Positions 5,306-52,080 are shown, counted from the stretch's first letter. The stretch: 64,000 nucleotides of DNA from Bacillota bacterium (GCA_014896375.1 JADBKN010000001.1:274-64273); one strand, 5' to 3'. Numbers and translations: made by a program. The notes: generated by a model not told the origin, from the sequence alone.

Positions 5306-7393
5306 ATGACCGACCGCCCGCCCTCCGCCTCGCCCGCCCGCCGGCTGGAGGCCGCCGACCTCCTCCGCCTTGTCTTCCTCAGTGACGTGGCCATGCGTCC
5401 GGACGGCCGCCAGGCCGCCCTTGTGCGCACCACCGTCGACGCGGAGGAGAACAAGTACCGCTCGCAGATCTGGGTGGTGGACCTGCCCGACGGCGAGCCG
5501 TGCCCCTTCACCGCGGCCGGCGCCCACCGCGACACGCACCCTCGTTATTCACCGGACGGTGCGCACCTCGCCTTCCTGTCGAACCGCAGCGGCTCGACCC
5601 AGGTCTGGGTGATGCCCACCACCGGAGGCGAGGCCGAAAAGCTGACGAACGTCGACGGCGTGGAGGACTTCGTCTGGAAGGACGCAGACGAGCTCGTCGT
5701 CACCGTGCGCGTGGGCCGCGAGGGGCTGACGGAGCCTGAGCCAAAGGACCCGCCGCCGCCCAAGACGCCGGAGGAGCAGGACCGCCGCTATAACCGCGAT
5801 GTGCGCGTCATCGACCGCGCCTTCTACAAGCTCGACACGGCCGGCTTCTTAGGAGACCGGCGCAGCCACCTCTTCCGTCTGAGCCGCCGTGGCGGGGAAC
5901 TCGTGCCGCTGACGAGCGGCGACTGGGACGACCGCGACGCGGCCGTCTCCCCGGACGGCCGCTGGCTGGCGTTCGTGTCCAAGCGCATGCCGAACGCCGA
6001 CTTCGTCCAGGCAAGCGACGTCTACGTCATGCCCGCGGAGGGCGGCGAGCCGCGCCGCCTCACGAGCGCCGAGGGATATGCCTCCAGCCCGGCCTTCACC
6101 CCGGACGGCCGCCATGTGGCCTTCCTCTGCCGGCGCGCGGAAGGGGAGGGCCGCTTCGACGAAGCCCGCCTCTACCTCGTCCCCGTCGACGGCTCCGCGC
6201 CGCCGCGCTGTGTGACGCCCGGCTTCGACCGTTCCCTTGTGGACGCCTCCATCAGCGACACACGCGGCCACGGCGGCACGGCGGCGCCCGCCTTCGCGCC
6301 GGATGGGCGCACCGCCTTCCTTCTCTCGTCGGACCGCGGCGTGACGCAGATCGTGGCTGTCGATGTGGAAAGCGGTGAGGTGACGCCGCTCTCCTCCCGC
6401 GAGCGTACGGTGTACGACGCCGCCTTCGCCCGGGACGGCCGTAGCTATGTGGCGCTTGCCTCGGACCCTGTCACTCCGAACGACGTGTGGTACGGCGAGC
6501 GCCCGGCGGACGGTGGCGACTCCTTGTCCTCGCCGTGGACGGAACGCCGGCTCACGGAGGTCAACCGCGAGCTCCTCTCGGAAGTGCAGCTGCAGGTGCC
6601 GGAGCGCATCGTCTTCCGCGCCCCGGACGGGCCGGAGGTGGAGGGCTGGATCCTCAAGCCCGTCGGGTTCCGGGAGGGGCAGGCCGAGAAGGTCCCGGCG
6701 GTGCTCGAGGTCCACGGCGGGCCCGAGGCCATGTACACGTCGGCCTTCTTCTTTGAGTTCCAGCTTTTGGCCAACCACGGCTTCGCCGTGATCTTCTCCA
6801 ACCCGCGCGGCTCCGAGGGCTACGGCAAGGCCTTCCGCCAGGCCATTCACCGGGACTGGGGGCGGAAGGACTGGGCCGACGTACAGGCCCTCCTGGACGC
6901 CGCCCTGGAGCGCGGCTTCATCGACCCGAACCGGGTGGGCATCGCCGGCGGCAGCTACGGCGGCTTCATGGTCAACTGGGCCGTGGGCCACAGCGACCGC
7001 TTCCGCGCCGCCGTCTCCATGCGCAGTCTCTCGAATTGGTTCGTCGACTACGGCGCCAGCGACTTCGGCCACCTGCTGGACGACGACCTCTTCGCCGCGC
7101 CCCCGTGGAAGGACCCGGAGGCGTACGCGCGCATGTCGCCGCTCTGGTACGTGGAGAACGTGCGTACCCCGCTGCTCCTCCTCCACGCGGAGGAGGACTA
7201 CCGCTGCCCGGTGGCGCACGCGGAGCAGTTCTTTGCCGCACTCAAGCGCCTGGGGAGGACGGTGCAGCTGGTGCGATACCCCGGGGAGTCGCACGAGATG
7301 TCGCGCAGCGGGAAACCCTGGCACCGCGTCGACCGGCTCCGCCGCATCGTCGGCTGGTTCACGACGCACCTCGCAGCGACGGCCGCGCCGTGA
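5306..7393 (+). CDS. Prolyl oligopeptidase family S9 peptidase (acylaminoacyl-peptidase-like): N-terminal beta-propeller plus C-terminal alpha/beta hydrolase
   Basis: ATG at 5306 after the SD-like GGAAAGCGAGG. TolB-like repeats (SPDGAHLAFLSNRSG, SPDGRWLAFVS, TPDGRHVAFL). Catalytic GGSYGG serine motif, with the D and H in the C-terminal domain. Confidence 0.85.
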   Translation: MTDRPPSASPARRLEAADLLRLVFLSDVAMRPDGRQAALVRTTVDAEENKYRSQIWVVDLPDGEPCPFTAAGAHRDTHPRYSPDGAHLAFLSNRSGSTQVWVMPTTGGEAEKLTNVDGVEDFVWKDADELVVTVRVGREGLTEPEPKDPPPPKTPEEQDRRYNRDVRVIDRAFYKLDTAGFLGDRRSHLFRLSRRGGELVPLTSGDWDDRDAAVSPDGRWLAFVSKRMPNADFVQASDVYVMPAEGGEPRRLTSAEGYASSPAFTPDGRHVAFLCRRAEGEGRFDEARLYLVPVDGSAPPRCVTPGFDRSLVDASISDTRGHGGTAAPAFAPDGRTAFLLSSDRGVTQIVAVDVESGEVTPLSSRERTVYDAAFARDGRSYVALASDPVTPNDVWYGERPADGGDSLSSPWTERRLTEVNRELLSEVQLQVPERIVFRAPDGPEVEGWILKPVGFREGQAEKVPAVLEVHGGPEAMYTSAFFFEFQLLANHGFAVIFSNPRGSEGYGKAFRQAIHRDWGRKDWADVQALLDAALERGFIDPNRVGIAGGSYGGFMVNWAVGHSDRFRAAVSMRSLSNWFVDYGASDFGHLLDDDLFAAPPWKDPEAYARMSPLWYVENVRTPLLLLHAEEDYRCPVAHAEQFFAALKRLGRTVQLVRYPGESHEMSRSGKPWHRVDRLRRIVGWFTTHLAATAAP

Positions 7394-10889: not shown

Positions 10890-11029
10890 GCGTCCAATGT
10901 ACCATGCGTCTGCCGCGGCGCGCGGCGGCGTAGTACGATCCAAGGGGCGAGAGACCAGGCGGGGAGACAGGACCCCGGAAAGGACGTGTCGCGCTGCACG
11001 GGCTTCTCCAGGCCGTCGCCGATTGGATC

Positions 11030-11614
11030 GTGCAGGTCGCCGTGCGCTGGGGCTACTGGGGCGTGGCGCTGGAAATGGCGATCGAGAACGCCAACATCCC
11101 CCTGCCCAGCGAGGTCATCCTTCCCTTTGCCGGCTACCTCGTCTTCACCGGAGCCCTGAAGTTCTGGGGAGCCGTGGCGGCCGCCATGGCCGGTGGGCTC
11201 TGCGGCTCGGCCTTCTCCTATGCTCTCGGGTATTTCGGCGGGCGTCCGCTCGTGCTGCGCTACGGGCGCTATGTGCTGCTCAACGCCCACCACCTGGAGC
11301 AGGCGGAGGCGTGGTTCCGCCGTCACGGCGAGGCCGCCGTGTTCTTCGGCCGCCTCCTGCCGGTCGTACGCACCTTCATCTCACTTCCGGCCGGCATCGG
11401 CCGCATGGCCTTCGGACGCTTCCTCCTCTATACGCTGCTCGGTTCCTTGCCGTGGACGACGGCGCTCGTGTGGGCGGGCGTCATCTTGGGGGAACGCTGG
11501 TCGGCGCTGGAAGGCTTCTTCCACCGGCTGGACTACGCCATCGTGGCCGCCGCATTGGTGGCGGCCGTAGTGCTCCTTTGGCGAGGGCGGGGGAGCGACC
11601 GTCCCCGACGGTGA
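11030..11614 (+). CDS. DedA / VTT-domain membrane protein
   Basis: GVALEMAIENANIPLPSEVILPFAGYLVF matches the DedA core. The only in-frame start after the upstream stop (10931) is GTG at 11030. Conserved-looking residues (LHGLLQAVADWI) lie upstream in frame with no start codon, so a non-canonical start or an upstream frameshift is possible. Confidence 0.75.
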   Translation: MQVAVRWGYWGVALEMAIENANIPLPSEVILPFAGYLVFTGALKFWGAVAAAMAGGLCGSAFSYALGYFGGRPLVLRYGRYVLLNAHHLEQAEAWFRRHGEAAVFFGRLLPVVRTFISLPAGIGRMAFGRFLLYTLLGSLPWTTALVWAGVILGERWSALEGFFHRLDYAIVAAALVAAVVLLWRGRGSDRPRR

Positions 11615-11656
11615 CGGAAAGGCGACGGAACGCCGATGGGAACCGGTGTGGGGGAC

Positions 11657-11691
11657 GCGGCGGGCGGCAGTGCCCGCCGCTGTGCTTTGTC
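11657..11691 (+). terminator. Intrinsic terminator after dedA
   Basis: GCGGCGGGC-ggcagt-GCCCGCCGC (9-bp perfect stem) followed by TGTGCTTTGTC. Confidence 0.4.
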
Positions 11692-11763
11692 GGGGTAGAC
11701 GTCCGTGATGGTGAGACTGGCACGACCTGACACTTTAGGCCTACACAATGCAATCGGCTGCTG

Positions 11764-11782
11764 CTATATTAGTGCAAGCGAC
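11764..11782 (+). promoter_or_regulatory. Conserved 19-bp motif CTATATTAGTGCAAGCGAC upstream of wrbA (second near-identical copy at 18839-18857)
   Basis: Direct read. The copy at 18839-18857 is CTATATTAATGCAAGCGAC (18/19 identical) in the doxX / hxlR divergent intergenic. Contains a TATATT -10-like hexamer. Confidence 0.4.
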
Positions 11783-11849
11783 GTCGCCGGGAAAGGTCCC
11801 GTACCCCCATGGGGATGCTATCGGCAAACCATGCGGAGGAGAGCGTTCC

Positions 11850-12488
11850 ATGGGCGATCTCAACCTTGCGATCATCTACTACTCGTCCACCGGCACCATC
11901 CACAGGATGGCCGAAGCCGCGGCGGAGGCGGCGCGCGAGGCGGGGGCGGACGTGCGCCTGCGGATCGTGCAGGAGCTGGCGCCGCCGGAAGCCATCGCGC
12001 GCAACCCCAACTGGAAGAAGTTCCGCGATGAGCATCCCGATCTTCCGGTGGCCACGCTGGAAGACTTGGAATGGGCCGACGCGATCCTCTTCGGTTCGCC
12101 GACCCGCTACGGCAACGTGGCCGCACAGATGAAGCAGTTCCTCGACCAGAGCGGTCCGCTGTGGGCGCAGGGTAAGCTGGCGAACAAGGCGGTGTCGGCG
12201 TTCGCCTCTGCGAGCAACCCGCACGGCGGCCAGGAGACGACGATTCTCGCGCTCTACAACACGATGCACCACTGGGGTGCCATCATCGTCCCGCCGGGCT
12301 ACACCGACCCGACGATCTTCGCGGCGGGCGGCAACCCGTACGGCACGAGCGCCGCGGCCAACGAGACCGGACCCGCCAAGGAGGTCCTCGATGCCGTCCG
12401 CTATCAGGCGAAGCGGCTCGTCGAGGTGGCGCGCTGGCTCAAGGCGGGGCGCGAGGCGGCGCAGCGTGTGCCCGTGGGCAGGGCGTAG
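11850..12488 (+). CDS. wrbA: NAD(P)H:quinone oxidoreductase, WrbA-type flavodoxin-like
   Basis: LAIIYYSSTGTIHRMAEAAAEAAREAGADVRL...GSPTRYGNVAAQMKQFLDQSGPLW is typical WrbA. ATG at 11850 with GGAGGAGAG as SD. Confidence 0.85.
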   Translation: MGDLNLAIIYYSSTGTIHRMAEAAAEAAREAGADVRLRIVQELAPPEAIARNPNWKKFRDEHPDLPVATLEDLEWADAILFGSPTRYGNVAAQMKQFLDQSGPLWAQGKLANKAVSAFASASNPHGGQETTILALYNTMHHWGAIIVPPGYTDPTIFAAGGNPYGTSAAANETGPAKEVLDAVRYQAKRLVEVARWLKAGREAAQRVPVGRA

Positions 12489-12720
12489 CGATCTGAGCTC
12501 GACGGACGGGATCCCGGCGTTCTGAGCGTGGCGCGCTCTTCGCGACCAGCCCCGGCGGGTCGGAGCGCATCGTCGACCGCCGCGCATCCTTTTCATGAAG
12601 GCCCGGACTGCCTACGGCCCGGGCCTAAACATTTCCCTTGCGGACGTCGAACACGGATCCGAGAACGTGCGCGCACGGCCCGGCTGCCGCCGCCCGCGCG
12701 CCGCAGGAGGGGGTCGGGAG

Positions 12721-13500
12721 ATGCTGGCGCAGAGTGGCGCCCGTAGGGGCGACCTGACCACGATCGTCGGCGCTGGAGCTGAGATCCGCGGCACCGTGGC
12801 CTGTCCGGGCCGTGGCCTGATGCGCATTGAAGGTCGCGTGGAAGGCGAGGTCGTCTCCGCCGGCCACGTGGAGGTGGCGGAGTCGGGTGAAGTCGCGGGC
12901 GTGATCCGCGCGCACGACCTCACCGTGTCTGGCGTGGTGCGGGGCGACGTGCACGTCTCGGGACGCTTGGAGCTGCGCGCCACGGCGCGGCTCTTCGGGC
13001 AGCACATCCGGATGCGGTCGCTGGTCGTGGCGGAGGGTGCCGTCTTCCAGGGCCGGTGCGAGATCGTGCGAGGGGCGGGGGATGCGGGAGCCGCGGAGGC
13101 GGCGGAGGCCGAGGGCGCGGCGGAGGCTGCGGCGGCGGCCGCGGCCGTGGGGGCGGCCGGGGCCGCGGACAGCGAGGATGCAGCGGAGGGTGCCGTGGCC
13201 TTCGGGTGGCCCGATCCAGCGGCGGATGGGGACGCCGCCCTAGCCCTGAACCGGGCGCAGGCCGGGGTGCAAAAAGGCCGGCCATCCGCCTTTGGGCTGG
13301 ACCGCGGCGAGGATGGGGACGCGGAGGCAGACGAGGGGCACGCCGAGCTGGAGGATGCGCCGCTTACCGGTGCGGCTCCGGTGGGCCACGACCGGCCGGC
13401 CGGTGCTCCGCGCGCCGCCCGCGGGGCACGCGCGGACACTCTTCGCGGGCCCGCGGCCGTGGACGGGCGCCGCGTGCTCTGGTCGCGGAAGCGGCCGTGA
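12721..13500 (+). CDS. Bactofilin (CcmA-like polymer-forming protein) with a long Ala/Glu/Asp-rich C-terminal tail
   Basis: Bactofilin beta-helical repeats (GAEIRGTV..GRVEGEV..GHVEV..GEVAGVI..LTVSGVVRGDVHVSGRLEL..). ATG at 12721 after GGAGGGGGTCGGGAG. About 130 aa low-complexity tail. Confidence 0.8.
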   Translation: MLAQSGARRGDLTTIVGAGAEIRGTVACPGRGLMRIEGRVEGEVVSAGHVEVAESGEVAGVIRAHDLTVSGVVRGDVHVSGRLELRATARLFGQHIRMRSLVVAEGAVFQGRCEIVRGAGDAGAAEAAEAEGAAEAAAAAAAVGAAGAADSEDAAEGAVAFGWPDPAADGDAALALNRAQAGVQKGRPSAFGLDRGEDGDAEADEGHAELEDAPLTGAAPVGHDRPAGAPRAARGARADTLRGPAAVDGRRVLWSRKRP

Positions 13501-13978
13501 GCCGTAGGCAGCGGGTAAGGCGCGTGCCGGCGCCACATGTGGCGGGCGCGGCAGGGCATGGTGAGCGGCCAGGCCGGCGACTGCGGTAGGCCCGCCGGCT
13601 GGCTGCGGCGCGGGGCGCGGCGGGGGCTTGCGCGTGGGCTTGGGTGCTGCGCGGGGCTGGCTGCGAGCGGGAGGCGGCCCTTTAAGTGCGGATCGGCCGC
13701 TATGGGCCTCGAGGGGCCTTAAACTCGTTGCAGGGGGGCGCTCGTGGAAGTCTAAGGTACCAAAAGCACTCAACGCTCCGGCTCATGCGACGGGCGCGTC
13801 GAAGGGGGTCGTCGCCGCCCCGCGCACCTCGGCCGCCGCGCCGTTCGCGCACACCCACCGCAGCCGCGCCGCAGCTGCGCCCCGCCACGGCGGCCGCGCC
13901 GTCACACCACAGCAGCCGCGCCACGCCAGCCGCGACCTCGACCGCGCCCGCCCAAGCCTCCCGCGCCGCTGCACGCGC

Positions 13979-14085
13979 TCACGCGCCGTCGCGCCGTCCC
14001 GTGCCGTCCCACGCCGTCCCGTTCAGCCCCGTGCCATCCCGTGCGGTCATGTGCCGTCCTCCGTGCGCCGTCACACTTCGTTGAA
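13979..14085. repeat. Degenerate tandem decamer array (~9 copies of CG(T/C)GCCGTCC(C)) in the non-coding region upstream of the apbE operon
   Basis: Read: cgcgccgtcg cgccgtcccg tgccgtccca cgccgtcccg ttcagccccg tgccatcccg tgcggtcatg tgccgtcctc cgtgcgccgt. Upstream (13830-13960) there are CAGCCGCGCC-type simple repeats. Confidence 0.5.
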
Positions 14086-14154
14086 AATTGCCGCGCATGA
14101 TGACGCTCAAATCGAGCGTGCGAACGTCGTGCGCTCGTGCGGAGGTGTCGCCGT

Positions 14155-14472
14155 ATGCCCACGACCGCGCCGGATGCCCCGCGTCCACGACGCGCGCGCC
14201 TGTACCGCTGGTTCGTCACGGCGGCGAGCGTGGTGGCCTTCGCGGGCTTGTCCGTCGACATGGCGGCGTCTGCACCGCCGCCGATGCCGGCCGCCCAGCC
14301 TTCGAGTCCCGGGCAGCTCGCCCCCGGCGGGGGCCTTCCCGACCGGCTCGGTTCCGACTTCGTCCGTCACCGGCGCCACCACTTCCGCGACTTGCCGGGC
14401 GGCCAGAGTGGCTCGCCGTTCCTCGCGCCCGGCCAGCAGGCGCCGGCCTTCGAGCCGACGGGGCCGTCATGA
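14155..14472 (+). CDS. Small membrane-anchored Pro-rich protein of unknown function, translationally coupled to apbE
   Basis: ATG at 14155 with a strong SD GGAGGTG at 8 nt spacing. One TM helix (LYRWFVTAASVVAFAGLSV) then a Pro/Gly-rich tail. Strong GC3 bias. The stop TGA overlaps the apbE ATG (ATGA). Confidence 0.4.
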   Translation: MPTTAPDAPRPRRARLYRWFVTAASVVAFAGLSVDMAASAPPPMPAAQPSSPGQLAPGGGLPDRLGSDFVRHRRHHFRDLPGGQSGSPFLAPGQQAPAFEPTGPS

Positions 14473-15458
14473 TCGCAACCTTCCGCGGTGCCGCGGCCTT
14501 GCCCGGTGTCGCCCTCTACACCTTCGGGGCGATGAACACCGAAGTGCGGGTGCTGGTGGCCGGGTCGCCGGACGATGCAGACCGCGCCGGACGTCTCGTG
14601 CAGACCGTCTTCCAGGCCTACGAAGTGAATCTCAGCCGCTTCCTGCCCTCAAGCGCGCTCACGCGCCTCAATCGAGACGGCGTGTTGGATCACCCACCGC
14701 GGCTGCTGGTGCGGGCGCTCCGTCGTGCGAGAACATGGCAGGCGCGCTTGCCCGGGTGGTTCGATCCCACCGTGCTGCCGGCCCTGGAGCGCGCGGGCTA
14801 CGATCGGTCGTTCGAGACACTGCGGGCGGCCGCCGAGCCAGCGGCGCCGCGTGGAGGTGGGGACGCGCCGCCCGGGGGTGAGGACGAGGATGAGGATGTG
14901 GATGTGGATGAGCATGTGACCTTGAGCGCCGGCGAGTGGCTGTTGGAGGCCGGGCCCCGGCGCGTGCGCCTGGCTCCGGGGGTGCGCGTCGACCTCGGCG
15001 GCATCGGCAAGGGACTGGCCGTGGACGACGCGCTCAAGGCGCTCGCCCGCGCCGGGTTCGCCGATGTGCTCGTGAATGCCGGCGGCGACATGCGCGCATG
15101 CGGCGGCCCGCCGGGGCTCGACGCCTGGCCGGCCGCCGTGCTGCACCCCCTTCTGCCGGGCCGCCCCTTGCGTGAGGTCCGGCTGCGCGACGCCGCTCTC
15201 GCGACCTCCTCCACGCTGAGGCGCCGCTGGGTCCGGCAGGGCGAGATGCGCCATCACCTCATCGATCCGCGCACCGGGCGGCCGGCGGCCTCGCCGTGGG
15301 TGTCGGTTACCGCGTGGGCACCGGATGCGGAGACGGCGGACGCCGCCGCGAAGGCCATGCTCATCGCCGGCCCCGGGGGTGCGGCGCGCGTGGCGGCCTT
15401 GCTTCCAGAAGCGCGGTTCCTCTGCGTGCGGGCGGATGGCGGGGTGGAGGAGTGGTGA
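14469..15458 (+). CDS. apbE: FAD:protein FMN transferase (ApbE family)
   Basis: DLGGIGKG motif, with AGGDMRACGGPPGLDAWPAAVLHP consistent with ApbE. ATG overlaps the upstream stop. Confidence 0.85.
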   Translation: MIATFRGAAALPGVALYTFGAMNTEVRVLVAGSPDDADRAGRLVQTVFQAYEVNLSRFLPSSALTRLNRDGVLDHPPRLLVRALRRARTWQARLPGWFDPTVLPALERAGYDRSFETLRAAAEPAAPRGGGDAPPGGEDEDEDVDVDEHVTLSAGEWLLEAGPRRVRLAPGVRVDLGGIGKGLAVDDALKALARAGFADVLVNAGGDMRACGGPPGLDAWPAAVLHPLLPGRPLREVRLRDAALATSSTLRRRWVRQGEMRHHLIDPRTGRPAASPWVSVTAWAPDAETADAAAKAMLIAGPGGAARVAALLPEARFLCVRADGGVEEW

Positions 15459-15460
15459 AC

Positions 15461-16012
15461 GTGACGCTGCCGCCGGCCCTCTTCAGCAACCAGTTCTTCT
15501 GGTTTGTCACGCGCGCCTCAGGCGTTCTCGCCCTGGCGCTTCTCTTGCTGTCCGCGGTGTGGGGCGTCGCGATTCGGGCCGGGCACTGGGACCGTTGGAT
15601 GGCGCGCTGGGACGTGCAGGATCTGCATCGCTACGTCTCTTGGCTGGCGTGCGGATTCCTCCTGATTCACGTGACGGCGCTGTTGGGCGACCGCTTTGTG
15701 GGCTTCGGCCTGGCGGACCTCCTCGTGCCCTTCCACTCCTCCTACGCCGAGCCTTACACCGGGTTGGGCGTGGTGGCGCTGTATCTTTTGGTGGCGGTCA
15801 TGGTCACGTCGTACCTCACGCGCGCACTGCGCTACCGGCAGTGGCTGGCCTGGCACCGCCTATCGTACGTGGTGGTGCTGCTCGTCCTCCTCCACGCGCT
15901 CGGCACCGGTACCGACCGCTTCAAGTGGTGGATGCTGGCCGTCTGCGCGATCGGGGCCGCGTCGCTGGCGGCGGGCTGGCGCGCGAGGCGCTCTTGGGCC
16001 AAGAAGACGTGA
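15461..16012 (+). CDS. Ferric-reductase-like / MsrQ-like heme-binding transmembrane protein
   Basis: 5 predicted TM helices with conserved His in TM2 and TM4 (LLIHVTALLG, LLVLLHALGTG). GTG start 2-3 nt after the apbE stop, after GGAGGAG. The start could be 15452, 15455 or 15461. Confidence 0.55.
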   Translation: MTLPPALFSNQFFWFVTRASGVLALALLLLSAVWGVAIRAGHWDRWMARWDVQDLHRYVSWLACGFLLIHVTALLGDRFVGFGLADLLVPFHSSYAEPYTGLGVVALYLLVAVMVTSYLTRALRYRQWLAWHRLSYVVVLLVLLHALGTGTDRFKWWMLAVCAIGAASLAAGWRARRSWAKKT

Positions 16013-16025
16013 GCACAGAGCGGAG

Positions 16026-16523
16026 TCACTGGCTGGGACTCGTACCGCGCGCGAAAGCGTAGGACGCCTGCACGATGGTCCAAACCACCTCCAGCTCCTC
16101 CTCGTCCCGCGGTCCGTAGACCATCATGGCCGTGGGCGGCAGCCAACCTCGGCGCGCGACCGGATGCAACTCGCCCCAACCCTTGGCGGCCACCACGCGG
16201 GCTGTGGCTTCGGGCAGCATGAGATGCAGGCTCCCGTCATAGGGCGGGTGCAGGTGGGCAAACTCCCGGCCGATCATGAACGCCTCCGGTGGTCCGGCCG
16301 CCAGCCCCTCATCGAGGATGAAGGCCCGGGCTCCCGGGACGGAGATCCCGCTGGGACCGACGCGCACCCCGGGCAGGGCCCGGGCCTGCTCAAATAGAGC
16401 CTCCTGCAACCAGGGAGGAGCGTTCTGGTCCAGCTGCTGATGGGGGTTCGTCCGGGTGGTCCGCGGCCGTGGACCCCGACGTTCGGGTAAGGACTCGATC
16501 GCCGAGAAGGAAACCGTCATCAC
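16026..16523 (-). CDS. Conserved hypothetical protein (HxxDGSxH motif; possibly the luciferase-like small domain family)
   Basis: 165 aa ORF with strong codon bias. Motif EFAHLHPPYDGSLHLMLP. Family assignment is tentative. Confidence 0.45.
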   Translation of the reverse strand: MMTVSFSAIESLPERRGPRPRTTRTNPHQQLDQNAPPWLQEALFEQARALPGVRVGPSGISVPGARAFILDEGLAAGPPEAFMIGREFAHLHPPYDGSLHLMLPEATARVVAAKGWGELHPVARRGWLPPTAMMVYGPRDEEELEVVWTIVQASYAFARGTSPSQ

Positions 16524-16558
16524 CGAACCTCCGCATCCACTCCACCGCGATATCGGTT

Positions 16559-17209
16559 TCAGTCGCTGGTGACGGCTCGTTCGACGGCCGCCCGCAGCCG
16601 CTCATAGGGGAGAGCGCCAGAAATCCGCCACCGGTTTTGCAAGACCAGGGCGGGTACGGCATAGATTGCCCAGAGCGCCGCCAATTGCCGGTCTGCGGCA
16701 AGTATTTCCCGGGCTTGCGGCCCGTCCATCGTCTCGGCAAAGAGGCCCAGGTCGAAGCCGCACTCCTGGGCGATGTCCAACAAGGTGTCCCGGTCGGCGA
16801 TGTCGCGGCACTCGGTCAAGTGGGCCTGCTGGACGCGCTGGAAATACCGCCCATGTCCCTCGTTGCCCTCCAGGATCTGGGCCGCAGCACACGCGAGGAG
16901 ACCCGGGGTCGAATGGGGGTACGGGAAGGGCCGCTGGGCCATGAGATCGGGGCGAATCCGCCCCTCCTCATCGTCGTGGGCCGCCGCCTGTTGCCAGTGA
17001 CCCAGGATCTCCCGTTTCGCCTCCTCCCGGGAGCCGAACATGCGCACCAGGTCGTCTGGTTCCGGTGCGAGGGCAAACGTGTGGTGGCGCAGGTCGACCT
17101 CCACACCCCGATCCTGCAGCTCCCCAACCAAGCGCTCCAGCCGCGGCGACAGGACATAACACCAGGCGCACAGCACGTCGTGAAAGAAGTCGATCCGTAA
17201 CGTGGCCAT
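16559..17209 (-). CDS. DsbA-family thiol:disulfide oxidoreductase (FrnE / 2-hydroxychromene-2-carboxylate isomerase-like)
   Basis: CxxC motif in DVLCAWCYVLSP, 216 aa. ATG at 17207-17209 preceded by AGGAGG. The upstream part of the ORF to 17458 is not coding. Confidence 0.8.
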   Translation of the reverse strand: MATLRIDFFHDVLCAWCYVLSPRLERLVGELQDRGVEVDLRHHTFALAPEPDDLVRMFGSREEAKREILGHWQQAAAHDDEEGRIRPDLMAQRPFPYPHSTPGLLACAAAQILEGNEGHGRYFQRVQQAHLTECRDIADRDTLLDIAQECGFDLGLFAETMDGPQAREILAADRQLAALWAIYAVPALVLQNRWRISGALPYERLRAAVERAVTSD

Positions 17210-17573
17210 CTCGGTCTGCCTCCTGAACCGGAGCGGTGAGGGTCGCACCGGCGACTCGCTGGCCGCTCGACGCGATGACCACTCATCCGCGGGCAGCCGG
17301 CGCCAGAACTGCGGCCCTCTCTTGAGCCAGCGGCGGCCTGCAGTCGTCTTCTTCCTCCCAGACCGCCTCACCGGTGGTGGGATCCCAACGGGCACCTTCC
17401 AGCGCCCGGGTAAGAGCAGGGCCGAAGGGTTGGAGGGGACGAAGAGCGCCCTCCGCAAGTCGCACCTGTAGCTCCGGCAAGGGTCGAGTCAACCCCCTTT
17501 TCGGGTTGGAAGGTCCCCCTATGCGTGATCCGCCCACGGTGTCACCTGAACCCAATTCCGTCAGAAGCTCCGG

Positions 17574-18368
17574 TCAATCCACGAAAGGCCCGTAGAAGCG
17601 GATGGCCTCATGCTGGCGCGGGCCGGCGATCCACGCCGCGCGCGCCGGATCAACGGCACGCAGCTCCACGGACGGTTCATCCCTCACCACGGCCACCGAC
17701 TGCCGATGGACCAGCTGGTCACCCAGGCTGACCGCGCCCTCCAGCACGTAGAGGATCCCGGTCCAGTCTGCCGGCAGTTCCTCCCGCCAGGTGGCGCCGC
17801 CCGCCCACTGCACGTCCACGTAGCGGATCGGCGTGTGCAACAGCACCGCTCCTCCTTCGCCCCCGATCACGCGCACGCGGCCCCCGGCAAAAGTATGCTC
17901 CGGCACGTCGGCGGCCTCCCGGGCCTCCGCTTCCGGAGACAGGCCCTTGAGACGCCGTGGGAGGTTGACCCAGAGCTGCAAGCCGCGGGTGAGGCGATCA
18001 CCCAACGGATACTCGGAGTGGGTGACGCCTCGCCCGCAGGTGATGCGCATCACGCCGCCGCTGCGGCAGGCGACTTCCAGACCCGTGCTGTCGCGGTGGG
18101 CGAAACCGCCCTGCACCATGTAGGTGATGATCTCGAAGCCGCGGTGCGGGTGTTCGGGAAAGCTGGCGTCCGGTGGCACATGGAAGTCGTCGATGAGGAC
18201 GAAGGGATCCGTCTCCGGCCAGGCGAGGAGGTCGGTCGGAAAGGCACGCGCCATGACGGCGCCGATGCCCTCAGGGGTCCTACGTGCAGGATAGACGTTG
18301 ATCACGAGAGCAGTCCCTCCTCGGCGATCTTGTCCCTGCCGGCGCGACGCATCCGGAACGCTCCGCAT
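17574..18368 (-). CDS. Pirin family protein (bicupin)
   Basis: HPHRGFEI pirin metal-binding motif at about residue 73, two cupin halves. ATG at 18368. An alternative ATG at 18254 is possible. Confidence 0.8.
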   Translation of the reverse strand: MRSVPDASRRQGQDRRGGTALVINVYPARRTPEGIGAVMARAFPTDLLAWPETDPFVLIDDFHVPPDASFPEHPHRGFEIITYMVQGGFAHRDSTGLEVACRSGGVMRITCGRGVTHSEYPLGDRLTRGLQLWVNLPRRLKGLSPEAEAREAADVPEHTFAGGRVRVIGGEGGAVLLHTPIRYVDVQWAGGATWREELPADWTGILYVLEGAVSLGDQLVHRQSVAVVRDEPSVELRAVDPARAAWIAGPRQHEAIRFYGPFVD

Positions 18369-18407
18369 AAGGCGGGCCGTGCGCGCCGCTGCAACCTTGC
18401 CGTCGAC

Positions 18408-18782
18408 TCACCACTTCCAGCTGGGCACGGCCAAGAGCATGACCAGCGCTGCGGCCAGAGCGAAGTTCTTCAGAAAGTTGGCCATCTGGTTGGTCTTGGA
18501 CATCGGATCTTCCTCGACCCAGAAGTTGTGCATCAGGACAGCTGCAGCCACAAGGAACAGCGCCGTGACGCCGATGCCCCACGGCACGAGGAAGCCGAAG
18601 AGGATCGAGACGCCGCCGAAGAGGAGCATAAGTCCGGTCACGACCACGGCGAGCCCAGGCGCCGGCACCTTCTTGTACCGCGTGTACTCGGTCATCATCT
18701 TCAAGTTGGAAAAGTGGTTCACCCCGTTGAACAAGAGATACAGGGCGAGCACCACCCTGGCTACGTCGACCGCGATCTGCAT
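18408..18782 (-). CDS. DoxX family membrane protein
   Basis: 124 aa, 4 TM (LYLLFNGVNHF..., LVAAAVLMHNFW). GGAGGA SD 10 nt before the ATG at 18782. Divergent from hxlR, which is a classic pairing. Confidence 0.8.
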   Translation of the reverse strand: MQIAVDVARVVLALYLLFNGVNHFSNLKMMTEYTRYKKVPAPGLAVVVTGLMLLFGGVSILFGFLVPWGIGVTALFLVAAAVLMHNFWVEEDPMSKTNQMANFLKNFALAAALVMLLAVPSWKW

Positions 18783-18920
18783 CGCCGCCATTCCTCCTTT
18801 AAGGGTTTTGGGTGCGGCGCTCCGGCCGCCCCGTGCTACTATATTAATGCAAGCGACTATGCATGTGCAATTACAGGATATGCGGTGGCCGCACGGGTGA
18901 CGACAGGCGGAGGAGGTACA

Positions 18921-19316
18921 ATGCCTGTAGCAACAAAAACGGAGGCGATGCGGGTGGAAGTGTGCCCGCTGGCACGCACGGCCGCGTTGATCGGCGACGT
19001 CTACGTCCTTCTCATCCTCCGCGACCTGGCCGCCGGGCCGCAGCGGTTCACGTCGCTGGCGCGGTCGGTGGGTGTGAACCCGCGCACGCTCAGCAACCGG
19101 TTGCGGCGCATGGAGAGGGAGGGCCTCGTGGCGCGCCGCCACTACGCTGAGATCCCGCCGCGGGTGGAATACTCCCTGACGGACAAGGGGGAGTCCCTTT
19201 TGCCCATCCTCCACATGATGCGTCTCTGGGGCGAGCAATGGTTGATGGGCGGGACGCCTCGCCGTAAGCGCACGGCGCAGGGCTCCGCGGCGCTCGAAAC
19301 GCCCGCGGGCGCTTAG
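18921..19316 (+). CDS. HxlR-family winged-helix transcriptional regulator
   Basis: CPLARTAALIGDVYVLLILRDLAAGPQRFTSLARSVGVNPRTLSNRLRRMEREGLVARR.YAEIPPRVEYSLTDKG is the canonical HxlR fold. ATG at 18921 after GGAGGAGG. Confidence 0.85.
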   Translation: MPVATKTEAMRVEVCPLARTAALIGDVYVLLILRDLAAGPQRFTSLARSVGVNPRTLSNRLRRMEREGLVARRHYAEIPPRVEYSLTDKGESLLPILHMMRLWGEQWLMGGTPRRKRTAQGSAALETPAGA

Positions 19317-19465
19317 CGGCCTTCTAAGGCGGATGTCGAGCCGGATGTGAGGATCGCCCTGGCTCGGGCGGATCGTGACGGTTCCCGTGCCCCTGGCCGC
19401 CATTGGGCGGAAGGCGTCACGGCGGCGACGGTCGAACATCAACGGCAATCACCAGCCACCGGTGG

Positions 19466-20200
19466 ATGAGGGCGGGGGGAAAGCCGTTGACGACGGCGGA
19501 AGCGCGTGGCGCCGCGGCCGGCGTGGCCGTAGCCGCCCGCGGCGTCTCGAAAGCCTACCACCGAGGCGGGGAGACCATCTGGGCCCTGCGCCGCCTGGAT
19601 CTCGATGTCCCCGAAGGCGCCTTTCTGGCCGTGACCGGCCCTTCCGGCTGCGGCAAGACGACGCTCCTCTCGGTGCTCGGCACGTTGGAGCGGCCCACAT
19701 TCGGCGACGTCTTCATCGACGGGCAACGGGTGACGGGCCTTAGCGAGGACCGGCTGGCCGAGGTGCGCCGTAAGAAGATCGGCTTCGTCTTCCAGACCTT
19801 CTACCTCATCGACTACCTCACGGCACTTGAAAACGTGGCCGTGGCGCTGCGCTTTCAGGGGTTGTCGAAACGGGCGCAGCGGGAGCGGGCGCAGGAGCTT
19901 CTGGAGCTCGTGGGCCTGGGCGACCGCATCCACCACCTGCCGCGGGAACTCTCCGGCGGCCAGCAGCAGCGCGTGGCCATCGCACGGGCGCTGGCGGCGG
20001 AGCCGAAGGTGATCCTCGCCGACGAGCCCACCGGGAACCTGGACCAGTCCTCCACCGCCCAGATCCTGAAAGTCTTCGAAAAGATCCATGCGGCGGGCCA
20101 GACGCTCGTCGTGGTGACGCACGACGCGCGCGTGGCCGACGCGGCCGAGCACCGCCTGCGCCTCCTGGACGGCGCTGTGGTGGACAGCACACTGGAGTAG
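19466..20200 (+). CDS. ABC transporter ATP-binding protein (FtsE/LolD/MacB-ATPase-like)
   Basis: Walker [11 protein letters not shown]-loop, signature [15 protein letters not shown], Walker [13 protein letters not shown]-loop VVVTHD. Start is either ATG at 19466 or TTG at 19487. Confidence 0.85.
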
Positions 20201-51994: not shown

Positions 51995-52020
51995 CCTGCC
52001 GGACGTACAATGCTATAATC
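51995..52020 (+). promoter_or_regulatory. Putative relA promoter with extended -10 (TGCTATAAT)
   Basis: acgTACAATGCTATAATcagcattaaaattt about 60 nt upstream of the relA ATG. AT-rich discriminator region. Confidence 0.35.
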
Positions 52021-52080
52021 AGCATTAAAATTTCATGCGGGAGAACCGCCGTCCACGGCGCGCAACGGAGGTGAGCGGCG

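Follow-up and report, generated by a model that had tools for sequence, protein, structure and literature searches.

A repeated promoter element as candidate operator of a one-cysteine HxlR-family regulator at wrbA and doxX-hxlR in a Bacillota genome

Several regulators of the HxlR (DUF24) family have been described together with their operators and targets. The YodB box has the form TACT-N7-AGTA (PMC8063818), and the regulons of both YodB and QsrR include quinone reductases, sensing being achieved by an N-terminal cysteine (PMC6798810). QsrR of Staphylococcus aureus, a YodB-family repressor, responds through S-alkylation by quinones of its single essential Cys5, and its regulon comprises quinone reductases, a nitroreductase and dioxygenases (PMC6798810). 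The catDE promoter carries two CatR boxes (PMC6212828), and the box of HypR (YybR) of Bacillus subtilis occurs both at the gene targeted and at the promoter of HypR itself, in the latter case in a downstream position (+24 to +39) for autorepression (PMC3351151). Here we analyze a 64,000-nucleotide stretch of DNA from a Bacillota bacterium (GCA_014896375.1, JADBKN010000001.1:274-64273), hereafter the window, in which a 24-bp repeat is found upstream of wrbA and again between the divergent genes doxX and hxlR. From sequence comparisons, this repeat is probably the operator of the HxlR/DUF24 regulator whose gene lies at 18921-19316, a protein with one cysteine that is related to YodB, QsrR and CatR. 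An earlier note on this DNA had proposed a candidate operator of the adjacent HxlR that links wrbA with doxX/hxlR; this proposal is supported by comparison with orthologous regions, by a weight matrix and by the wrbA promoter of an Alkalibacterium.

The repeat had been noticed as a near-identical 19-bp motif present at both sites, an observation which we confirm and extend. The 19-mers CTATATTAGTGCAAGCGAC (11764-11782) and CTATATTAATGCAAGCGAC (18839-18857), both on the + strand, are the sole matches at up to 3 mismatches in the window, and none was obtained in 100 dinucleotide-preserving shuffles. Identity reaches 5 bp further upstream, which defines a 24-bp repeat TGCT[G/A]CTATATTA[G/A]TGCAAGCGAC, also written TGCTRCTATATTARTGCAAGCGAC. 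Its two copies, TGCTGCTATATTAGTGCAAGCGAC in the wrbA promoter (11759-11782, + strand) and TGCTACTATATTAATGCAAGCGAC in the doxX-hxlR intergenic region (18834-18857, + strand), are identical at 22 of 24 positions, both mismatches being purine transitions, and the runner-up match of the 24-mer on either strand of the window reaches 15/24. As the window is about 72% G+C and holds only three all-A/T 8-mers, one of them within the repeat, such an AT-rich 24-mer repeat is far from chance. Between the two window sites there is no likeness outside the 24 bp, and the 5' untranslated regions (UTRs) of wrbA and hxlR are unrelated.

Both copies overlap promoter elements. The wrbA gene (11850-12488, + strand, ATG at 11850) encodes a type IV NAD(P)H:quinone oxidoreductase with FMN_red and Flavodoxin domains, whose product passes the equivalog cut-offs of TIGR01755 (171 bits versus 132.5) and NF002999. 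Copy 1 lies 68 bp upstream of it. A promoter scan identifies TACACA-17 nt-TATATT at 11742-11770 (+ strand), a sigma-70-type promoter with a TG before the -10 element (extended -10). The predicted transcription start falls within or just past TGCAAG, and the single operator unit recognized here, CTAT-ATTAGTG-CAAG (11764-11778, + strand, core TGCAAG at 11773-11778), covers the -10 hexamer and the start. A VTT/DedA gene lies upstream on the same strand, followed by a terminator-like hairpin (11657-11680) that separates it from wrbA, so that wrbA has a promoter of its own.

Copy 2 is contained in the 129-bp gap between doxX and hxlR (18921-19316, + strand, PF01638). In the hxlR direction, either TGcTACTAT (18834-18842) or TATATT (18840-18845) on the + strand can be recognized by eye as an extended -10; it is not called by a strict promoter scan because there is no recognizable -35. 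In the doxX direction, a tentative promoter was likewise seen by eye on the - strand (18841-18870), TTGCAC (18870-18865)-18 nt-TAATAT (18846-18841); it is weak, with 3/6 and 4/6 consensus matches, and the consensus scan did not call it. Operator unit A, CTAT-ATTAATG-CAAG (18839-18853, + strand), overlaps the hxlR-direction -10, and a second unit B, CTAT-GCATGTG-CAAT (18857-18871, + strand), follows 18 bp past unit A. The 33 bp formed by the two units (18839-18871) would span the hxlR-direction promoter region and the whole tentative doxX promoter. The element is placed as operators of the YodB/QsrR class are, over the promoters of a quinone-detoxification gene and of the regulator's own gene (-10/+1 of wrbA and hxlR, and tentatively the doxX promoter).

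The same unit recurs at homologous loci, which we designate by L numbers where they must be told apart. HxlR homologues 65-72% identical to that of the window keep a divergent DoxX while their other neighbors differ: hydantoinases at L001 and L008, a glyoxalase and a PF17648 protein at L007, SelA at L009 and L014, cytochrome c at L037, with L058 as a further doxX-hxlR locus; at L039, HxlR is paired with PNPOx and a flavin reductase instead of DoxX. The core CTAT-N5-TGCAAG is found again between doxX and hxlR: the intergenic regions of L009, L014, L058 and L037 carry CTATAT(A)AATGCAAG or CTATAGAACTGCAAC (in full, GTGGCTATATAAATGCAAGCC at L009, GTGACTATATAAATGCAAGTG at L014 and L058, and ATATGCAAGTTGCTATAGAACTGCAAC at L037), and the direction in which the motif points with respect to hxlR never changes. 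L039 has AGTATGCAAGCTACTTGTAATCGTCAAGTAAC plus TATGATGCGTGCAAGG, including ...GTATGCAAGC... and the palindrome TACTTG-N7-CAAGTA, and two more distant HxlR loci, L017 and L018, present a perfect 17-bp palindrome, ACTTGCAA-C-TTGCAAGT. Given these palindromic relatives with CTTG-N7-CAAG and ACTTGCAA-N-TTGCAAGT, we read the unit as a 4-7-4 element, CTAT-N7-CAAG. Operators of the YodB/QsrR class are palindromes whose short arms stand about 7 bp apart, so that a dimer can occupy two successive major grooves. The window unit has the 4-7-4 spacing and is symmetric only at its outer positions and in the right arm, the full palindrome being seen only at L039, L017 and L018. Unbiased Gibbs sampling of the raw intergenic sequences alone converged on the same unit alignment. 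The Thermaerobacter-type locus L004 (HxlR 61% identical, other neighbors) has TGCA-rich repeats and lacks the unit. Other palindromes considered (TGCA-N8-TGCA, TGC-N12-GCA and TACT-N11-AGTA) were dropped in favor of the 4-7-4 unit, as their spacing was inconsistent between loci, and a relaxed-pattern match at L015, CTATACCAATGCAAG, lies within an open reading frame (ORF) and was taken as chance.

A second regularity concerns the pairing of units. The window tandem reads CTAT-ATTAATG-CAAG, linker cga, CTAT-GCATGTG-CAAT, and similar arrangements are found at L058 (CTAT-CCTATTG-CAAG, tga, CTAT-ATAAATG-CAAG), L014 (CTAT-CCTATTT-CAAG, tga, CTAT-ATAAATG-CAAG), L009 (CTAT-CATATTG-CGAG, tgg, CTAT-ATAAATG-CAAG), L037 (GTAA-TGATATG-CAAG, ttg, CTAT-AGAACTG-CAAC) and L039 (CATA-CAGTATG-CAAG, cta, CTTG-TAATCGT-CAAG). 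The phasing was assessed on five loci, namely the window hxlR region, L009, L014, L037 and L039, L058 being excluded as nearly identical to L014. All five hxlR-upstream regions contain a CAAG that is matched, 18 bp to either side and on its own strand, by a C[AG]A[GCT] partner, and no locus has a partner at any other spacing from 8 to 30 bp. Among 2000 dinucleotide shuffles, the best spacing was never shared by more than three loci. Since L009 and L014 are related, the five loci are incompletely independent. The imperfect inverted repeats that the earlier note described after the hxlR site (TTAATGCA...TGCAATTA) exist only if a 1-nt shift is allowed, and this stretch is better read as the second head-to-tail unit, CTAT-GCATGTG-CAAT, 18 bp on. 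The wrbA sites carry one unit, not two.

The wrbA site can be predicted from other genomes. A weight matrix was built from 8 units, all taken from hxlR-upstream regions of other organisms, and run over the approximately 128,000 positions of the window. The hxlR site at 18837 ranks first (27.5 bits) and the wrbA site at 11762 second (21.9 bits); the runners-up, at 16 bits, are AT-rich noise, and unit B comes fifth. The ranking is stable under a uniform background, and a variant matrix adding locus L055 was also run. That locus emerged from a scan of 185,579 species genomes with the exact pattern GYKRCTATATWARTGCAAGY, which gave 21 matches, about two-thirds of them inside long ORFs; the chance expectation by our arithmetic is about 70 (596 Gb x 2 / (4^14 x 2^6)), so that 21 is of the order of chance. 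Among those outside long ORFs, one falls in the DoxX-HxlR interval of L058, a locus from a Clostridiales genome. Another, L055, comes from the low-GC lactic acid bacterium Alkalibacterium sp. MB6 (NZ_PREX01). It is located 55 bp before a gene whose product is a WrbA homologue (54% identity), in a promoter reading TTGACA-17-TACTAT, which again has a sigma-70-type -10, the motif beginning within it. A chance match in the right orientation less than 100 bp from a wrbA start has a probability roughly estimated at 1e-3 for the whole set. No HxlR gene is present in the 8-kb Alkalibacterium locus.

Other observations were made at the scan matches. In the L055 wrbA leader, a palindrome GTATCTC-GAAATA-GAGATAC (7066-7088) starts from the G of CAAG. 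At its ends it is similar to the HypR box, GTATC...GATAC (PMC3351151), and it may represent either a hairpin of the leader or another operator. The intergenic matches L043 (with an HSP20 neighbor), L052 and L044 have no related genes nearby. In an Anaerolineaceae metagenome-assembled genome (MAG), outside Bacillota, an exact match GTGACTATATAAGTGCAAGTA (L045, 2457-2476) stands 52 bp upstream of a gene for an NmrA-like NAD(P)H-binding protein, with no HxlR gene in the 8-kb locus; as a regulon case it is suggestive but unproven.

A number of points weigh against an HxlR operator shared by wrbA and doxX-hxlR. The wrbA orthologue closest to that of the window (L063/L064), which is 87% identical and has kept the VTT-wrbA-bactofilin gene order, shows TGCTATATTATTGAAAGCGACGTCGCTT, with TGAAAG for TGCAAG, so that the otherwise most conserved CAAG is AAAG; at the next two orthologues, L065 and L066 (73-75% identity), the motif is absent and the promoter unrelated. 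Control of wrbA is thus not conserved among near relatives. The earlier idea that the motif ties wrbA to the regulon, which the matrix search and Alkalibacterium favor, finds no support in the nearest wrbA orthologues, where the motif is degenerate or missing. The top HxlR matches include no orthologue from the assembly of L063, a gap that could reflect loss of the regulator and equally an incomplete MAG. The source MAG itself lies outside the genome collection, and the count of two motif copies applies to the window. At the hxlR loci, L001, L008 and L007 (HxlR 68-72% identical) show only a CTAT-N7-CAAC unit or an unrelated palindrome, and L009, L014 and L058 are mutually related, which leaves the loci not fully independent. 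The asymmetry of the unit is consistent, CTAT always standing opposite TGCAAG; homodimeric winged-helix proteins do not usually have such sites, and the CTAT arm may be conserved only as a -10 element. Finally, the flanks TGCT (left) and CGAC (right), eight bases common to both window sites, vary at other loci and are not accounted for by operator constraint. This flank identity might be due to a flank preference of this protein, to another factor acting at wrbA or to conversion of a short stretch; GCGAC is part of a palindrome, GCGACGTCGC, at wrbA, whereas at hxlR these bases make up the 3-nt linker together with the C of unit B.

The surroundings of the wrbA promoter hold further features. 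The perfect palindrome GCGACGTCGC (11779-11788) lies directly past the wrbA unit and overlaps the 3' end of the repeat; a 14-bp version, AAGCGACGTCGCTT, is found at the orthologous L063 (about 680-695), where a second TTGAAAGC is found 16 bp further on. The palindrome might be bound by another regulator, or it might belong to the 5' end of the transcript. Near the wrbA -35, a block GACACTTTAGGnCTACACA (11727-11747) is kept in the window and in L063/L064, the spacer between -35 and -10 being wholly different, and at L065 the wrbA promoter is flanked by GACACTA ... TAGTGTC.

The HxlR product belongs clearly to its family, with PF01638 at 88 bits for a cut-off of 20.8, which confirms an HxlR-type winged helix-turn-helix. 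Its relatives in the PDB are 7kd3, HxlR of B. subtilis (7bze), HypR/YybR (4a5m, E = 1.6e-14) and YodB (5hs7, E = 2.7e-11), QsrR (4hqm, E = 8e-7) being a more distant structural relative. Orthology with YodB or QsrR was not found: the likeness is at family level only, so that this HxlR is no orthologue of any characterized member. Nor does it fall within RrpA/RrpB (NCBIfam NF047367 and NF047364), as its scores of 73 and 61 bits are far under the cut-offs of 175 and 185. Its nearest relatives are uncharacterized MAG proteins, and a scan of metagenome proteins returned just four relatives at 54% identity or more. The sole cysteine, C15, is N-terminal, at the start of helix alpha1 and within a CP motif, and C15-P16 is invariant across 17 homologues. 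The NCBI record (MBE3589210.1) starts at M10 (18948) and gives 122 aa, and the ORF permits a start at 18921, preceded by GGAGGAGGT, for a 131-aa form; as homologues differ in N-terminal length, the start may be at 18921 or 18948. A correspondence between an RLRR or RLHR recognition helix and CAAG or CAAC arms was considered; it is suggestive and not clean, L037 having both arms.

Taken together, these data allow a mechanism to be proposed. The recognized unit would be about 15-19 bp long, (T/G)(A/G)CTAT-N5-TGCAAG(Y), a half-degenerate form of the palindrome in which the right arm TGCAAG has been retained and the left arm has turned into CTAT(AT), doubling as a -10 element. Dimers of reduced HxlR would occupy the single unit of wrbA and the two phased units of doxX-hxlR and, judging from the position of the sites, occlude RNA polymerase at the -10/+1 regions. 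At doxX-hxlR, this would mask the -10/+1 in the hxlR direction and, in the doxX direction, the tentative promoter from its -35 to its -10. The genes repressed would be wrbA, hxlR itself and doxX-pirin-dsbA-PF17648. Because the site overlaps the -10, the regulator is unlikely to act as an activator in the way that HypR and HxlR do. The signal can be proposed by analogy only: as with QsrR Cys5 and YodB Cys6 (PMC6798810, PMC8063818), modification of Cys15 by a quinone or another electrophile, or by an oxidant, would free the repressor. With a single cysteine, a YodB-type Cys6-Cys101' intersubunit disulfide is impossible; plausible chemistries are a QsrR-like S-alkylation by quinones or electrophiles, S-thiolation, or a Cys15-Cys15' disulfide. 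There is also some chance, if a small one, that the asymmetry and the 18-bp head-to-tail phase reflect a binding mode undescribed for HxlR/DUF24 proteins, with two dimers or a tetramer bound cooperatively in tandem and one half-site replaced by a -10 hexamer read by repressor and sigma factor alike. Such a mode would define a DoxX-linked HxlR subfamily, with a regulon that includes wrbA and extends from high-GC uncultured Bacillota to Alkalibacterium.

Downstream of doxX (18408-18791, - strand), the first gene of the divergent operon, lie a pirin gene (17574-18368, - strand, 39 bp from doxX), a DsbA-like gene (16559-17458, - strand, 115 bp from the pirin gene) and a gene for a PF17648-domain protein (16026-16523, - strand, 35 bp from the DsbA-like gene). 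The shared strand and these gaps make co-transcription of the three genes with doxX probable, and it is only by this route that the pirin and dsbA-like genes, previously suggested as regulon members, are included. On the other side, ABC, FtsX and MacB-type genes and a gene for a P-type ATPase lie downstream of hxlR. The ABC/FtsX transporter had also been suggested as a regulon member; it has no motif of its own, and a terminator scan between hxlR and the ABC gene was uninformative, so that we do not retain it.

Four alternative explanations were weighed. The best placed, which we still consider unlikely, is that the repeat is the operator of another regulator encoded elsewhere, the adjacent HxlR binding something else, for example only unit B. 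The tie between the HxlR protein and the DNA is indirect, and other candidate sites exist: the palindrome GCGACGTCGC (AAGCGACGTCGCTT in L063), which overlaps the 3' end of the repeat at wrbA, could serve another factor, and the Alkalibacterium locus combines the lack of an HxlR gene within 8 kb with another palindrome, GTATCTC-N6-GAGATAC. However, the motif tracks hxlR even though the neighbors vary (SelA, cytochrome c, hydantoinase, PNPOx and flavin reductase), more distant HxlR genes have palindromic versions of the half-site directly upstream, and the window contains a single HxlR gene.

A purely promoter-based explanation, in which a -10, a discriminator and an initial transcribed region are favored by RNA polymerase or an alternative sigma factor without any repressor, appears improbable. 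It would account for the TATATT with upstream TG that both copies place where a -10 is expected, and for the -10-like left arm of every unit. Yet the earlier assessment that the motif exceeds plain promoter consensus is borne out by the window itself: the -35 regions of the two sites are unrelated (TACACA at wrbA, GCGCTC at hxlR), which also argues against an alternative sigma factor, and other AT-rich promoter-like spots (5056 and 52015-52031) are not followed by TGCAAG. Moreover, the upstream unit of L009, L014 and L058 (CTATCC/CTATCA...CAAG) and the palindrome of L039 are not -10-like, and the 18-bp phasing of CAAG would be left unexplained.

That a promoter fragment was recently copied within the genome or transferred by gene conversion, its extra identity being functionless, is very unlikely. 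An identity of 22/24 is above usual operator constraint, and the flanks TGCT and CGAC are common only within this genome; against this, the likeness ends abruptly at 24 bp with no mobile-element features. The wrbA version is largely ancestral, L063 having TGCTATATTAtTGaAAGCGAC, and in the hxlR lineage the version found there is ancestral too, as seen at L009 and L014, so that the likeness arose by convergence on one consensus, and a copy would account at most for the 8 flanking bases. A shared RNA leader element, riboswitch or small RNA target is barely credible: transcription probably includes the 3' part of the repeat, but about 10 transcribed bases at most are in common, the 5' UTRs are otherwise unrelated, and Rfam 15 covariance models gave no match at E<=1 over 11000-20000. 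A CcpA cre site (WTGNAANCGNWNNCW) was also rejected: ATGCAAGCG fits its left half by eye, and the right half fails at 3 positions at both window sites.

Some features of the wider gene neighborhoods may be recorded. A PF17648 ("Luciferase" domain) gene is found near the DoxX/HxlR pair both in the window, on the doxX side, and at L007 (6812-7273), on the hxlR side after the glyoxalase gene; its product may be a recurring, uncharacterized member of this stress module. At L009 (124-1653) and L014 (872-2320), two JGI loci that match the motif best, the gene downstream of doxX, in the same direction, is selA, encoding selenocysteine synthase, which is unexpected beside a quinone-stress gene. Upstream of a distant HxlR homologue, L020 (about 2900-2990) shows a tandem array, TTCATAATTTATAATTCATAATTCATAATTCATAATTGATAC, in which ATAATTC recurs as a heptamer-like repeat. 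The window interval that separates the two motif sites holds an ApbE flavin transferase gene (14088-15458) and a gene (15296-16012) whose product is a ferric-reductase-like transmembrane protein, a pair suggestive of a module for electron transfer or for an extracytoplasmic flavoprotein; the two ORF calls overlap by about 160 bp, which makes one start codon uncertain. The bactofilin gene downstream of wrbA (12595-13500) contains 9-bp-periodic GC-rich repeats, GCGGCGGAGGC..., at 13074-13201; these encode a low-complexity tail rich in Ala, Gly and Glu and dominate the direct-repeat families of the window.

An operator of the adjacent HxlR would thus be a plausible and ordinary regulatory site, whose notable details are the strict 18-bp head-to-tail pairing and the left arm doubling as a -10. 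A testable operator and a minimal regulon (doxX-pirin-dsbA-PF17648, hxlR, wrbA) would become available for an uncharacterized HxlR subfamily that is consistently paired with DoxX in uncultured Bacillota, and CTAT-N5-TGCAAG, combined with the 18-bp tandem spacing of the units, could serve as a rule by which to annotate regulons of this kind in MAGs. The general picture of thiol-based quinone and electrophile sensing would remain unchanged, since the system fits the YodB/QsrR/CatR paradigm.

Within this paradigm, the published boxes of YodB and HypR differ in sequence from the operator proposed here. YodB of B. subtilis (MarR/DUF24, the HxlR family), which controls azoR1, yodC, spx and catDE, shares with the present HxlR its family and an N-terminal cysteine in a CP motif, and its repressing operator on quinone and azo reductase promoters has the same geometry as our unit, with 4-bp arms 7 bp apart. 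It differs in its arms (TACT ... AGTA, versus CTAT/CTTG ... CAAG here), whereas the units described here are asymmetric and in tandem at 18 bp; in its Cys6-Cys101' pair, versus one cysteine; and in its targets, AzoR1 and YodC, versus DoxX, pirin, DsbA and WrbA. QsrR, whose operator is GTATA-N5-TATAC, is the best mechanistic analogue of a one-cysteine HxlR, with a low sequence likeness; we know of no DoxX partner reported for it. RrpA and RrpB of Campylobacter, redox-responsive MarR/HxlR-like proteins, provide the best NCBIfam matches of our HxlR, which, at scores below cut-off, is not a member. HypR resembles it as an HxlR-family protein with a conserved cysteine, Cys14, and a box at its own and its target promoter, and differs in that it activates hypO, binds a 7-2-7 palindromic box, GTATCAAAATTGATAC, and operates a two-cysteine disulfide switch. 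CatR of B. subtilis is a DUF24 repressor of catDE, whose first gene, catD, encodes a DoxX-like membrane oxidoreductase. Unlike at the present locus, catR is not adjacent to its target, the main catDE enzyme is a catechol dioxygenase, and YodB and Fur also regulate the operon. The two CatR boxes at this promoter (PMC6212828) are nevertheless a precedent for the paired units found between doxX and hxlR.

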